The translations under genes were made by a program, and so were the position numbers. The notes beneath the pieces were generated by a model. That model was given only the letters and a program-made list of their open reading frames with translations. It had not been told where the DNA came from and searched no databases. This document shows, piece after piece, positions 41,269 to 47,588 of a DNA stretch of 64,000 nucleotides. The stretch is from Streptosporangiaceae bacterium. Lineage in GTDB: Bacteria; Actinomycetota; Actinomycetes; Streptosporangiales; Streptosporangiaceae. Location of the stretch: positions 22,414 to 86,413 of the forward strand of contig DATJQX010000059.1 in assembly GCA_035505275.1 (NCBI GenBank). The letters are read 5' to 3'. Positions within the stretch are counted from its first letter, which is position 1, and each line of letters opens with the position of its first letter.

Positions 41269-43290
41269 ATGGAGGGTCTTCGGCACGGTGATCCGGCCAG
41301 CGTGGGCGGCTACCAGCTGCTGGGCAGGCTGGGAGCCGGCGGGATGGGCCAGGTGTTCCTGGGGATCTCGCCGAGCGGCCGCCGGGTCGCGGTCAAGCTG
41401 ATCCATCCCGTCCACGCCGGGACCGAGCACTTCCGGGAGCGGTTCGCCAGGGAGATCGAGGCCGCCCGGCGAGTCGGGGGGTTTCACACGGCCCCCGTAG
41501 TCGACGCGGACCCGCACGCCGAAACGCCGTGGATGGTCACCGCCTACATCGACGGCCCTTCGCTGGAGGAGGCGGTCGCCCGGCACGGGCCGCTGCCGCC
41601 CGGGCAGGTGCGCGCGCTGGGCGCCGGGCTGGCCGAGGGGCTGGCGGCGATCCACGCGCATGGCCTCGTGCACAGGGACCTGAAGCCCGGCAACGTGATC
41701 ATGGCCGAGGACGGCCCGCGGATCATCGACTTCGGGATCGCCCGGGCGATCGGCGCGACCGCGCTGACCACGGCCGGCTCGGTGGTGGGCACGTTCGCGT
41801 ACATGTCTCCCGAGCAGGTCCGCGGCAATCCGGTCCTGCCGGTCAGCGATGTGTTCTCCCTCGGCTCCGTGCTGGCGTTCGCGGCGACCGGCCGGCCCCC
41901 GTTCGGCAGCGACACCGCCGCCACGGTCATGTTCCGCATCGTCAGCCAGCCGCCCGACCTGGGTGGCCTGGCCGACCAGGACCTCCGCACGCTGATCGAG
42001 GCCTGCCTGGCCAAGTCTCCCGCCGATCGCCCGCAGCTACCGGCGGTCCTGGCCGCACTGACCGGCCGCGGCCCCGTGCCCGCCCCCGTCGTTCCCCGCA
42101 CGACCCCCGTCGCCGGCGGCCGCGACGCCCAGACCCGGACGCACCCGGGCACGAACCCGCCCGCGACCAGCACGCCCGGACCCCCGGTCCACGCCCGGCC
42201 CGCCGGCCGCCGGCCTCGCCGCCGGACCGTCACGCTCATCGCCGCCGTGGCCGTCCTCGCCGTGCTGGGGGCCGTGATTCCCATCCTGCTGACCAGCGGC
42301 AGCCCGGGGACGCCGGCCGGCCACGACCCGGGCACGGGATCCAGCCCGGGCGGCGCCGTCGCGGCGCGGGACTTTACCGTGCAACTCCCGGCCAACGCAG
42401 AAGCCAACGACCTGGCGTTCAGCCCGGACGGCAGGTTCCTGGCCATCGGCGCAGAAAATACCGGGGCTACCTACCTGTGGGATGTCGCCACCGACAAGCA
42501 AGCCGCCATCCTCAAGGTGCGCGGCAGCAGCAGCATCACCAGCGTGGCGTTCAGCCCGGATGGCAAGCTCCTGGCCAGTGCCAACGCGAACGGCCAGGTC
42601 TTCCTGTGGGACGTCCCCACCGGGACGCTGGTCGCCACCCTGACCAGCCCGGGTAGCGGCGAGGCGGACGGGGTGGCGTTCAGCCCGGACGGCACGCTCC
42701 TGGCCATCGGCCAGGGCAACCGTCAGGTCTACGTATGGAGCGTGGCTACCCGCCGGGTTGATCGCACCTTCAGCGCCGCGAGCAACATCAACGGGGTCGC
42801 GTTCAGCCCGGACGGCCAGTTTCTCGCCGGCGCCGGCCTGCCCGCGATCATCTGGAACGTTGCCACCGGCCAGCGATACGCCGCCTTCTACGACCCGCAC
42901 GGCCAGAACGCCGGGAACGTCGCGTTCAGCCCGGACGGCAAGGTGCTCGCCGTGGTCGACGGGAACGAAAGGACCTACCTGTGGGACGTGGCGAGCGGCA
43001 ATGTCATCGCCACGCTTGTCGTCGCGACCCACCCGTTCGTCTTGGCCACCTACAACGAATCGGTGGCGTTCAGCCCCGATGGCAAGCTCCTGGCGACCGG
43101 CGACTCCTACTCCCACGTCTACCTGTGGAACGTCGCCACCGGTAAGGTCGTCGGCTCCATAATCGACCCGAGGCAATCTGGCTTCTGGGGGGTGGCGTTC
43201 AGCCCAGACGGTCGTCTGGTCGCCGCCGCCAACGGGGACGGCACCGTCTGGGTCCGGGTGGTCAGCCAGCTTGTGGGACCTGGTGGGTAA
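41269..43290 (+). CDS. Receptor-type Ser/Thr kinase with WD40 propeller, paralogue 2
   Basis: 673 aa with a Hanks kinase core, a Pro-rich linker, a TM helix (VTLIAAVAVLAVLGAVIPILL) and 7 AFSPDG blades. Confidence 0.9.
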   Translation: MEGLRHGDPASVGGYQLLGRLGAGGMGQVFLGISPSGRRVAVKLIHPVHAGTEHFRERFAREIEAARRVGGFHTAPVVDADPHAETPWMVTAYIDGPSLEEAVARHGPLPPGQVRALGAGLAEGLAAIHAHGLVHRDLKPGNVIMAEDGPRIIDFGIARAIGATALTTAGSVVGTFAYMSPEQVRGNPVLPVSDVFSLGSVLAFAATGRPPFGSDTAATVMFRIVSQPPDLGGLADQDLRTLIEACLAKSPADRPQLPAVLAALTGRGPVPAPVVPRTTPVAGGRDAQTRTHPGTNPPATSTPGPPVHARPAGRRPRRRTVTLIAAVAVLAVLGAVIPILLTSGSPGTPAGHDPGTGSSPGGAVAARDFTVQLPANAEANDLAFSPDGRFLAIGAENTGATYLWDVATDKQAAILKVRGSSSITSVAFSPDGKLLASANANGQVFLWDVPTGTLVATLTSPGSGEADGVAFSPDGTLLAIGQGNRQVYVWSVATRRVDRTFSAASNINGVAFSPDGQFLAGAGLPAIIWNVATGQRYAAFYDPHGQNAGNVAFSPDGKVLAVVDGNERTYLWDVASGNVIATLVVATHPFVLATYNESVAFSPDGKLLATGDSYSHVYLWNVATGKVVGSIIDPRQSGFWGVAFSPDGRLVAAANGDGTVWVRVVSQLVGPGG

Positions 43291-45503: not shown

Positions 45504-47588
45504 ATGGAGGGTCTTCAGCGCGGTGATCCTGCCAGCGTGGGCGGATACCGGCTGCTGGGCAGGCTCGGCACCGGCGGGATGGGCCAGGTGTTCCTGGGCA
45601 TGTCGCCCAGCGGGCGCCGGGTCGCGGTCAAGCTGATCCATCCGGTGCACGCCGGGACCGAGCACTTCCGTGAGCGCTTCGCCAGGGAGATCGAGGCGGC
45701 CAGGCGAGTCGGGGGCTTCCACACCGCCCCGGTGGTGGACGCCGACCCGCACGCCGATCCGCCCTGGATGGTCACCGCCTACATCGACGGCCCGTCGCTT
45801 GAAGAGGCGGTCGGCCGGTACGGGCCCCTGTACGCAGAACGCGTACGCGCGCTGGGTGCCGGCCTGGCCGAAGGGCTGGCCGCGATCCACGCGCACGGCC
45901 TGGTCCACCGGGACCTCAAGCCCGGCAACGTGATCATGGCCGGGGACGGGCCGCGGATCATCGACTTCGGGATCGCCCGCGCGGTCGACGCGACCGGGCT
46001 GACCTCCACCGGCGCGGTCGTCGGCACGTTCGCCTACATGTCTCCCGAGCAGGTCCGCGGCGATCCCGTCCGGCCCGCCAGCGACGTGTTCTCCCTGGCG
46101 TGCGTGCTGGCGTTCGCCGCGACCGGCCGGCCCCCGTTCGGCAGCGACACGGCCGCCGCGGTCATGTTCCGCGTCGTCGGCCAGCCGCCGGACCTGGCCG
46201 GGGTAGCCGACGAGGGGCTCCGCGCGCTGATCGAGGCCTGCCTGGCCAAGTCGCCCGAGGAGCGGCCGGCCGTCCCGGCCGTCCTGGCCGCGCTGACCGG
46301 CCGCGGCCCGTCACCCGCCACCCTCGCCCCCCGCGCACCCCGTCACGCGGCGCCCGCCGCGGACCACACCGGCATCCGGACGCAGACCAATCCGCCCGTG
46401 CGGGTGCCGGTCCAAACCGACCCGGGTCGCAACGGGTTCCCCGCGCCGAGTACCGTCCCGCCCAGCACGAACACGCCGCCCAGGGCGCTGCACGCCCGTC
46501 CCCCTCGTGGCCGGCCTGGTCGTCGGCGCGCCGCGCTTATCACCGCCGCGGCCCTCGTCGCCGTGCTGGCCGCCACCATCCCCCTCCTGCTGACGACGAG
46601 CAGCCCCAGCCGGAGCACGGGCGCCAGCCTGAACGACGGTGTCCCGGCCCGAAATCTCACCCTTCACGTTCGCGCGAGCCTGCCGTCCGGACTGCGGGTG
46701 ATCGCGTTCAGCCCGGGCGGCAAGCTCGTGGCCTTCGCCGGCGGGCCCTTCGACACCAAGCAGGACCAGCCGACGTTCGTGTGGAATATCGTCACCGGCA
46801 AGCTCACCACGCTCACCGACCCGGCCGCGCAAGCCCCGACCGCGGTCGCGTTCAGCCCCGACGGCAAACTCCTGGCTGACGCCGACGGTAACGGCAACGT
46901 CTACCTGTGGAAGGTGGCCACCGGCAAGCTCGCCGCCACCTTCGTCAGCCCGAAGGACGACCAGAACCCGGACGGGGTGGCGTTCAGCCCGGACAGTGAG
47001 CTCTTGGCCGTCGGCGAAACCAGCGGTCACACGGACGTGTGGGACGTCACCACCGGCAGGCTTATCAACGCCCTCAACAGCGGGGGCAGCAGTGCGGGGG
47101 TGGCATTCAGTCAGGACGGCCAGCTCCTGGCCGCCGCCGGAAGCAACGCGCTGCTGCTGTGGCACGTAGCCACCGGTAAGCAATACGGCGCCATCTACGA
47201 CCCGGGCACCGATGGCATCAGCGACGTCGCGTTCAGCCCGGACGGCAAGGTCGTGGCCGCCGCCGACAACAACGGCCGCGCCTACCTGTGGGGCGTCGGC
47301 ACCGGTGATCTCATCGCCACGCTCACGGCCCCCGCACAGCATTCCAACCAGGGCAAAAATGTGCTCTGGGTCGCGTTCAGCCCGGACGGCAAGCTCGTGG
47401 CCACGGCCGACGCTAACGGCCGCGCCTACCTGTGGAACGCCGCCACTCACAAGCTCGCAGGCACCTTCACCGACCCGGTCGGAGCGCAGGTCTTCGGCGT
47501 GGCGTTCAGCCCGGATGGCAGGACCCTCGCCATCTGCGACCTGAGCGGAAACGTGTACGTCCGGGTCACCAGCCAGCTGCTCTCCTGA
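45504..47588 (+). CDS. Receptor-type Ser/Thr kinase with WD40 propeller, paralogue 4
   Basis: ATG 45504 (MEGLQRGDPASVGGYRLLG) is homologous to the starts of paralogues 2 and 3. The ORF extension back to 45441 covers the conserved leader. It has a TM helix and 7 blades. Confidence 0.9.
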   Translation: MEGLQRGDPASVGGYRLLGRLGTGGMGQVFLGMSPSGRRVAVKLIHPVHAGTEHFRERFAREIEAARRVGGFHTAPVVDADPHADPPWMVTAYIDGPSLEEAVGRYGPLYAERVRALGAGLAEGLAAIHAHGLVHRDLKPGNVIMAGDGPRIIDFGIARAVDATGLTSTGAVVGTFAYMSPEQVRGDPVRPASDVFSLACVLAFAATGRPPFGSDTAAAVMFRVVGQPPDLAGVADEGLRALIEACLAKSPEERPAVPAVLAALTGRGPSPATLAPRAPRHAAPAADHTGIRTQTNPPVRVPVQTDPGRNGFPAPSTVPPSTNTPPRALHARPPRGRPGRRRAALITAAALVAVLAATIPLLLTTSSPSRSTGASLNDGVPARNLTLHVRASLPSGLRVIAFSPGGKLVAFAGGPFDTKQDQPTFVWNIVTGKLTTLTDPAAQAPTAVAFSPDGKLLADADGNGNVYLWKVATGKLAATFVSPKDDQNPDGVAFSPDSELLAVGETSGHTDVWDVTTGRLINALNSGGSSAGVAFSQDGQLLAAAGSNALLLWHVATGKQYGAIYDPGTDGISDVAFSPDGKVVAAADNNGRAYLWGVGTGDLIATLTAPAQHSNQGKNVLWVAFSPDGKLVATADANGRAYLWNAATHKLAGTFTDPVGAQVFGVAFSPDGRTLAICDLSGNVYVRVTSQLLS

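Follow-up and report, generated by a model that had tools for sequence, protein, structure and literature searches.

Tandem predicted receptor-type WD40 Ser/Thr kinases with conserved kinase domains and diverged propeller loops in a Streptosporangiaceae bacterium

The DNA analyzed here is a window of 64,000 nucleotides (nt) from contig DATJQX010000059.1 of an uncultured soil Streptosporangiaceae bacterium, and our subject is an array of three Ser/Thr kinase genes within it, which we refer to as K1, K2, and K3. As a first-pass annotation of this stretch had claimed, open reading frames (ORFs), Pfam matches, and hydropathy confirm three consecutive plus-strand genes of 673, 694, and 694 amino acids (aa) at 41269-47588, with a common layout of kinase, Pro-rich linker, transmembrane (TM) segment, and WD40 propeller (Table 1). 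That annotation spoke of a tandem triplication. The three genes do stand in tandem; the count is incomplete, since the window holds a fourth gene of the same architecture, K0, about 30 kb upstream of the array at 10619-12715.

Architecture of the array genes

Translational coupling had been assigned to K2 and K3, and direct reading of the sequence moves it one gene upstream: the TAATG stop/start overlap lies between K1 and K2 (43288-43292), and a gap of 129 nt separates K2 from K3. The same TAATG junction recurs in related genomes, between the first two kinase genes (A1/A2) of locus L001 and between P0008 and P0022 of locus L167. For K3, we placed the start at ATG 45504, which yields the conserved N-terminus MEGLQRGDP, while the mechanically called ORF extends to GTG 45441; an independent assembly of this organism likewise annotates a 694-aa protein. 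A further database entry, P0027, is 100% identical to K3 in kinase and propeller and has an annotated length of 683 versus 694 aa, and we take it to be K3 with another start codon. The window comes from a metagenome-assembled Streptosporangiaceae genome, and NCBI lists proteins identical to K1 and K2 under a genome of this kind.

Pfam family PF00069 (Pkinase) matched aa 15-261 of all three proteins with 132-139 bits (E about 1e-38 to 1e-40; cut-off 31.7 bits). The features that define a Hanks-type kinase, namely the Gly-rich loop, the VAxK Lys, HRD, DFG, and an APE-like motif, are intact in each protein as GxGxxG, VAVK at aa 40, HRDLKP at aa 135, DFG at aa 154, and SPE at aa 180, and the activation loop contains Thr residues (TALTTAGSVVGTF). 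K1, K2, and K3 are therefore strongly predicted to be active Hanks-type Ser/Thr kinases. The best curated match to the kinase domain was the AfsK model NF053615, at 289-301 bits over aa 1-262. Since these scores fall far below the curated whole-protein cut-off of 1300, the array genes are not AfsK orthologues. The PknD model NF009651 matched the kinase domain alone with 62-67 bits (cut-off 839).

WD40 propeller families matched the C-terminal 300 residues of K1, K2, and K3, and each protein has exactly seven AFSPDG-type motifs. In the AlphaFold2 (AF2) model of K1, whose confidence is high for both the kinase and the propeller, residues 369-664 form 28 strands, that is, seven blades of four strands, with a predicted local distance difference test score (pLDDT) mostly >90, so that the seven blades per gene counted in the first pass hold. 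Within this model, the K1 tail VWVRVV supplies strand C of blade 7 and the post-membrane strand at aa 369-372 supplies strand D, an arrangement known as velcro closure. The tails of the three proteins, VWVRVVSQLVGPGG in K1, VFVRVVSQLVS in K2, and VYVRVTSQLLS in K3, read as the claimed V(W/F/Y)VRV(V/T)SQL, and this modeled closure of blade 7 would account for their conservation. When the K1 propeller was searched with Foldseek, its nearest structures were seven-bladed WD40 proteins, including the WD40 domain of PkwA (5yzv; target TM-score 0.93, root-mean-square deviation 1.6 Å, 34% identity), and a sequence search of the PDB retrieved the same entry at E=1.6e-43. A seven-repeat C-terminal WD40 domain on a kinase polypeptide, the arrangement of PkwA, is therefore present. 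With respect to the canonical WD40 signature, which combines GH ... WD with an Asp-His-Ser/Thr-Trp tetrad, the strand C LW(D/N) and the Ser of FSPDG are kept, and His occurs in one of the seven D-A loops of K1. Mean identity between blades of one protein is 31-37%, which sets the genes apart from HET-E/NWD-like proteins with their very high inter-blade identity and hypervariable top-face positions.

A single strongly hydrophobic segment of 19-23 Ala, Val, Leu, and Ile residues lies between kinase and propeller in each protein, with a 19-residue Kyte-Doolittle mean of 2.5-3.0 and no rival stretch downstream of the kinase. The usual threshold for a TM span is 1.6. The flanks are markedly asymmetric, with 6 Arg in 15 residues on the N-side and 0-1 basic residues on the C-side in K1, K2, and K3. 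The segment is kept in 116 of 118 full-length homologues (mean flanking Lys plus Arg 5.8 on the N-side versus 0.9 on the C-side), and its own sequence is 31-96% identical at the aa level among seven copies. By the positive-inside rule, this charge distribution places the kinase in the cytoplasm and the propeller outside (N-in/C-out). We therefore strongly predict from sequence a cytoplasmic kinase and juxtamembrane linker, a single span with the C-terminus outside and the propeller facing the cell envelope, which is the receptor-type design of one TM between a kinase and an outer sensor domain. Both the receptor-type architecture and the TM helix proposed in the first pass are supported at this predictive level.

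Alternatively, the hydrophobic segment might not be a span at all, leaving the WD40 domain as a cytoplasmic scaffold. Most characterized WD40 domains are indeed intracellular (general knowledge; PMC5587647), and AF2 builds no helix here and has very low confidence over aa 307-362 of K1 (42187-42354). Against a scaffold stand a hydropathy well above the threshold, the one-sided Arg cluster, the retention of the segment in nearly all homologues despite poor sequence conservation, and the DeepTMHMM prediction of a periplasmic position for the same layout in Planctomycetota (PMC11032199). We regard a cytoplasmic scaffold as very unlikely. The failure of AF2 on this stretch may come from a poorly aligned linker in its input alignment.

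A role in anti-phage defence, as kinases of the PD-T4-6 or MADS type, would be suggested by matches to the PADLOC PD-T4-6 and mad6 models with E down to 1e-64. The best PD-T4-6 models and mad6 align with the generic kinase domain alone (about aa 8-265), however, and the AfsK (300 bits) and PknB models match that region more strongly. A few PD-T4-6 alignments continue into the linker and, in one case, the propeller, but nothing there indicates a domain in common. There are also no defence partners nearby, the neighbours being housekeeping genes, and an outer propeller fits envelope sensing rather than intracellular phage sensing. We rejected the PADLOC assignment as a set of generic kinase-domain matches that falls short of PD-T4-6/MADS membership, and we consider a defence role extremely improbable.

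The more distant paralogue K0 is 73% identical to K1 in the kinase and 38% in the propeller by tblastn, and its tail reads VYVKVTSQFVS. One of its blades is more diverged, as the regular expression used finds only 6 AFSPDG-type motifs. The linker of K0 contains a direct peptide repeat, with AAFSRPGLAP occurring twice.

Table 1. Positions of the array genes, their parts, and associated features in the window
Feature	Position	Strand	Description	Evidence
K0, more distant paralogue, 698 aa	10619-12715	+	architecture identical to K1-K3	tblastn of window, ORF, AfsK-model kinase match
Upstream anchor gene, 1060 aa	38000-41182	+	ferritin-like, Fer4_19, and two CDGSH domains; left edge of variable locus; present in 82 loci	Pfam
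Conserved leader upstream of K1	41190-41268	+	TANNNT-type hexamer TATGTT about 65 nt before ATG; G-rich stretch near start	alignment of upstream regions
K1, predicted receptor Ser/Thr kinase, 673 aa	41269-43290	+		ORF, Pfam, hydropathy/charge, AF2 model, Foldseek
K1 kinase domain	41311-42051	+	aa 15-261; Pro-rich linker follows	
K1 predicted TM segment	42226-42294	+	aa 320-342	
K1 WD40 propeller	42373-43272	+	aa 369-668	
TAATG stop/start overlap	43288-43292	+	couples K1 and K2	sequence read directly
K2, paralogue, 694 aa	43290-45374	+	orthologue A3 (L001)	
K2 kinase domain	43332-44072	+		
Candidate gene-conversion tract, K2 kinase C-lobe	43878-44113	+	partner in K3 46092-46330	silent-site run test; modest signal
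K2 predicted TM segment	44364-44432	+	aa 359-381	
K2 propeller	~44502-45368	+		
K2-K3 intergenic region	45375-45503	+	carries conserved leader and remnant like anchor gene 3' end	
K3, paralogue, 694 aa	45504-47588	+	orthologue A4 (L001)	
K3 kinase domain	45546-46286	+		
K3 predicted TM segment	46530-46595	+	aa 343-364	
K3 propeller	~46656-47582	+		
lysS, class I lysyl-tRNA synthetase	48701-50395	+	conserved right edge of locus	Pfam tRNA-synt_1f

Divergence and age of the paralogues

Divergence among the three window paralogues is strongly non-uniform along the protein. Their kinase domains are 85.3-89.1% identical at the aa level, with a ratio of non-synonymous to synonymous substitution rates (dN/dS) of 0.21-0.35, which bears out the 85-90% estimated by eye in the first pass. 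The corresponding values are 48.6-61.6% and 0.59-0.86 for the propellers, and 25-65% and 0.57-1.34 for the TM and juxtamembrane segments. Long identical nucleotide runs had also been reported; such runs exist, but they are modest, reaching 70 nt between K1 and K2, 46 nt between K2 and K3, and 32 nt between K1 and K3, and orthologue pairs reach 83 nt.

To describe where the propellers differ, we sorted their residues into strand and loop classes from the AF2 model. By standard WD40 convention, the D-A and B-C loops make up the top face, which is the usual binding face of WD40 domains. Among the paralogues, these top-face loops are 25% identical, the strands 53%, and the bottom-face A-B and C-D loops, which include SPDG and WDVATG, 73%. 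These class identities indicate that the scaffold is kept while the canonical binding face is almost wholly different between paralogues, in agreement with the earlier observation of diverged propellers on a retained scaffold.

The age of the array can be judged from the related genome L001, where a 559-kb contig carries the same upstream anchor gene followed by four kinase genes, A1, A2, A3, and A4. In both domains, K1 is orthologous to A1, K2 to A3, and K3 to A4, with kinase aa identities of 93.5%, 90.5%, and 94.7%, respectively; A2 is without a counterpart in the window. Metagenomes supply further orthologues for all four lineages, with propeller identities of 73-98%. A metagenome scan, which used a seven-sequence alignment and the patterns [ATS]GGMGQVF and [EDG]HFRERFA, was over-general and returned mostly short contigs with unrelated kinases on them, only L083-L085 being useful. 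Synonymous divergence (dS) between orthologues is 0.18-0.27 in both domains, and between paralogue propellers it is 0.45-0.62, two to three times as high and near saturation at a third-position GC content of ~0.9. Since each paralogue has a closer orthologue elsewhere and paralogue dS is higher, the paralogues predate the divergence of the compared genomes. The proposal of a recently expanded family is not supported by these data.

Within the window, kinase dS between paralogues is 0.25-0.36, lower than the propeller dS of 0.45-0.52 and near the orthologue values, and some homogenization of the kinase domains is therefore probable. We examined this with a GENECONV-style test for runs of matching silent polymorphic sites (2000 permutations, 21 pairs). 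The test was significant in one of the 21 pairs, K2-K3, where 21 consecutive matching silent sites were reached by 0/2000 permutations. Identity in this tract is 86.4% for K2-K3 versus 78.0% for A3-A4, and each gene is still closer to its own orthologue there. If ongoing gene conversion, and not differing selection, were the main cause of kinase likeness, as concerted evolution would have it, one would point to the low kinase dS, to this K2-K3 tract, and to the greater likeness of the window paralogues than of those in L001 (for instance, third positions are 81% identical for K2-K3 versus 74% for A3-A4). Yet the kinase domains group by orthologue and not by genome (90.5-94.7% aa identity), a single pair passes the run test, orthologues are closer even within the tract, and the orthologue kinase dN/dS of 0.11-0.19 by itself indicates strong purifying selection. 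We judge concerted evolution quite unlikely as the main cause; kinase conservation is due mainly to purifying selection, with gene conversion at most a minor contributor.

We then compared structural classes between orthologues, pooling five pairs: K1-A1, K2-A3, K3-A4, A2-C2, and K1-M1, where C2 is the A2-type kinase in L165 and M1 (P0004) is a K1-type singleton in L163. Pooled dN/dS was 0.19 in the kinase, 0.26 in the propeller apart from its top loops, and 0.58 in those loops, where non-synonymous changes were in significant excess (Fisher p=1.2e-5). Between orthologues, strong purifying selection acts on the kinase, the framework of the propeller is retained, and the top-face loops change two to three times faster than other regions. 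The diversifying selection invoked in the first pass is not shown by these data, as no domain or structural class has dN/dS >1 between orthologues, with a top-loop maximum of 0.93.

These same rates bear on whether the genes are arms-race receptors, in which ongoing positive diversifying selection on the top face and turnover of the array would build a repertoire against variable competitor, phage, or secreted molecules, as in plant receptor-like-kinase clusters. In favour, the top loops are the fastest class among both paralogues and orthologues (for K1-A1, 0.93 versus 0.25 for the remaining propeller), and the locus carries between 0 and 4 copies and, in one genome, a pseudogene, as described below. 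However, top-loop dN/dS comes to 0.58 when pooled and is at or below 0.54 in three of the five pairs; the lineages are well conserved in metagenomes at 73-98% propeller identity; and the limited identity between blades excludes repeat shuffling as in fungal HET-E/NWD WD40 proteins. On this balance, an arms race appears unlikely.

Origin of the array and turnover of the locus

About 75 nt before the start codon are conserved among K1, K3, A3, A4, C2, M1, and the distant K0. In addition to the copy before K1, this leader is found in the window at 45425-45503 and 10540-10618, in L001 at 16290-16392 and 18500-18598, and in L165 at 9900-10000; the stretch adjoining the start is GGATGGGG...GGTCTGGTCGG. 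The leader may represent a shared promoter and 5' untranslated region (UTR). As a structured RNA, it gave no Rfam match and no compensatory pairs or covariation in RNAalifold, and a scan for sigma-70 promoters and intrinsic terminators found nothing above shuffled expectation.

The regions upstream of the genes also preserve traces of their origin. Over the last ~100 nt upstream of A3, identity to the K1-upstream region is 85% and takes in the final codons of the anchor gene, and the K3-upstream region aligns with that stretch as well. Since the upstream regions of A3 and K3 keep this anchor remnant, the duplicated unit began within the 3' end of the anchor gene, and the sequence points to tandem duplication in situ of a unit composed of the anchor-gene tail, the ~75-nt leader, and a kinase gene. 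The end of K1 (...VGPGG-TAATG) resembles the leader end (gggacctggtgggtaATG versus ggggtctggtcgggtaATG), which suggests read-through in the K1 lineage into the collapsed leader of the gene that follows. Loss of A2 and of the DUF222 gene from the window fits a deletion between near-identical 5' ends. Our search located no deletion crossover, and K2 lacks a 5' block of A2-type sites; because the first informative K2 sites, at nt 45-46, are already A3-type, any crossover would lie within the first ~45 identical nt.

We next compared the locus across genomes by a synteny scan among species-representative genomes, with the C-terminal 426 aa of the anchor gene as query. The scan confirmed 541 encoded relatives, of which the best 80 loci, chiefly in Actinomycetota but also in other phyla, were inspected; kinase-bearing loci at or like this site (L001 and L163-L168) came from protein look-ups. 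A kinase-WD40 gene within 10 kb downstream of the anchor was found in 0/80 loci, which rules out an ancient static array. About 12 of the 80 keep the order of anchor, a variable interval of 1.5-8 kb, and lysS, many together with the M20 peptidase gene, with no kinase in the interval. Synteny with lysS was seen in L003, L005, L006, L009, L010, L012, L014, L015, L017, L018, L165, and L166.

Where kinase genes are present, their number and identity differ. L001 has four, and a split DUF222 gene separates A2 from A3. L165 has a frameshifted, kinase-less propeller fragment followed by one A2-type kinase, a DUF222 gene, and a PD40 gene. The fragment (8882-9871, 329 aa) begins within the TM segment and has a mid stretch that looks out-of-frame, which suggests a decaying K1/K2-type pseudogene. 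L166 pairs a fifth lineage (P0019) with an A2-type gene, and L167 pairs a K2-type with a K3-like gene through a TAATG overlap. In L168, a K2-type gene is followed by a K3-type gene and then unrelated genes, on a contig with neither anchor nor lysS, and in L163 and L164 a K1-type gene is solitary in another context; none of these three can be placed at this locus. Copy number at the anchor-lysS locus among related genomes is accordingly 0, 1 plus a pseudogene, 2, 3, or 4. The array is neither recent nor static; its members are old paralogues, and the stretch from the anchor gene to lysS is a hotspot of gene gain and loss.

In L003 and L004, the interval is occupied by a DUF222/HNH (13E12-type) gene and a gene for a secreted PD40/TolB-like propeller protein, neither of which is present in the window. 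Such elements lie at 11292-14900 in L003, 2344-6018 in L004, 12456-16202 in L165, and 14316-16167 and 20732-22010 in L001. The DUF222 element may take part in rearrangements of the locus.

The array has as neighbours genes for HisRS, NERD, LysRS, M20 peptidase, and SDR proteins, and a tRNA scan of the window found none. The anchor protein also has a conserved C-terminal region and in L001 is one 1371-aa gene fused to a NERD (nuclease-related) domain, which here is encoded by a separate upstream gene (37041-37913, plus strand). Between K3 and lysS, a minus-strand gene (47885-48427) encodes a small predicted membrane protein that is rich in Pro and Thr and matches no Pfam family, and a homologue with 45% identity lies downstream of the anchor gene in L004. 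Another Hanks-type kinase, of 550 aa and without WD40 repeats, is encoded 5 kb downstream of the array (52949-54600, plus strand); its kinase domain is 45% identical to that of K1, and the gene is kept at the matching position in L003.

Interpretation and relation to known kinases

Taken together, we find it fairly probable that K1, K2, and K3 are active single-pass receptor kinases, old paralogues that arose in situ, with diverged top faces and a shared output. Each paralogue would bind a different extracytoplasmic ligand or partner through its top face. By analogy with PknB/PknD-type kinases, binding could lead to dimerization and then to autophosphorylation of the activation loop. Because the catalytic domains are near-identical, the paralogues probably phosphorylate the same cytoplasmic substrates, so that several inputs would converge on one output. 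For expression, K1 and K2 would be co-translated, and K3 would be served by its own copy of the shared leader.

Several points weigh against this interpretation. No gene for a ligand, a substrate, an FHA protein, or a PP2C phosphatase lies nearby, and dimerization, shared substrates, and transcription units are parts of the model that we infer. The predicted topology derives solely from hydropathy and the positive-inside rule, and the stretch of K1 that AF2 leaves without a helix has a pLDDT of 31-38. The paralogue loop alignments are uncertain, which could inflate the measured divergence. Lastly, with dN/dS nowhere above 1 between orthologues, the fast evolution of the top loops could reflect relaxed constraint instead of changing specificity, and positive selection on a small number of sites would fit equally well.

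Ser/Thr kinases with WD repeats were first recognized with PkwA and have been noted in several actinomycetes and cyanobacteria, a single genome frequently holding more than one (PMC1262709, PMC5587647, PMC6113231). PkwA of Thermomonospora curvata shares with the array genes an N-terminal Hanks kinase and seven C-terminal WD40 repeats, its propeller being the 5yzv structure matched by K1, and its function is unknown in the literature (PMC6113231). The blades described here differ from those of PkwA in that they carry AFSPDG, mostly without the GH dipeptide in the D-A loops. Our comparison with PkwA types covers four paralogue lineages, each of which comes from uncultured Trebonia-like Streptosporangiaceae. 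Close homologues bear the NCBI name [quoted passage not shown] with Thermobifida and Actinoallomurus among the matches, and the Thermobifida homologue also has a hydrophobic segment, with 6 Lys/Arg on its N-side.

In Planctomycetota ("Ca. Uabimicrobium amorphum," Gemmataceae), single-pass Ser/Thr kinases (STKs) with a cytoplasmic kinase and periplasmic WD40 or TPR repeats have been predicted with DeepTMHMM (PMC11032199). They resemble the array proteins in their cytoplasmic Pkinase domain, one TM, extracytoplasmic WD40 domain, and lineage-specific expansion (PMC11032199), but belong to another phylum and have up to 19 WD40 repeats and hundreds of genes, whereas here there is one closed seven-blade propeller and a small local array. 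Tandem STK duplicates are also known from myxobacteria (cited in PMC11032199). The closest analogue in function is PknD of Mycobacterium tuberculosis, which has a cytoplasmic kinase, a single TM, and an extracellular six-blade NHL propeller without a known ligand (PMC1847690, PMC3322341); it is not a family match, given six NHL blades versus seven WD40 blades and a PknD model that matches the kinase alone. Streptomyces AfsK has a C-terminal beta-propeller of PQQ-type repeats (PMC1262709); in contrast, the C-terminal domain here is WD40 and lies behind a TM helix. Outside bacteria, plant CRINKLY4 (ACR4) also combines a cytoplasmic kinase with a WD40-type seven-blade ectodomain (bioRxiv 10.1101/2020.08.10.245050). 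This likeness is one of design only, as CRINKLY4 is eukaryotic, has an N-terminal ectodomain behind a signal peptide and an extra Cys-rich domain, and implies no homology beyond the domain families. Architecture, extracytoplasmic placement, and tandem duplication of bacterial STKs have all been described before, and there is little here that is conceptually new.

A bolder extension, to which we give rather little credence, is that Trebonia-like Streptosporangiaceae use the anchor-lysS interval as a dedicated birth-and-death locus, where a repertoire of surface receptor kinases with variable top faces and one conserved kinase output is built up; the paralogues might then act as heteromeric co-receptors. 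If true, bacteria would have here a counterpart to the receptor-like-kinase clusters of plants, sensing variable biotic ligands from competitors, phages, or host polymers.

Neither PknD nor the PkwA-type kinases have an identified ligand, and the ligands of bacterial receptor STKs with beta-propellers are unknown. The locus offers a natural comparison set for this problem, with four or five lineages that share nearly the same kinase, differ on one surface, and occur in 0-4 copies. This set could guide ectodomain-swap and ligand-fishing work and could be used to probe whether several sensors converge on one phosphorylation output.

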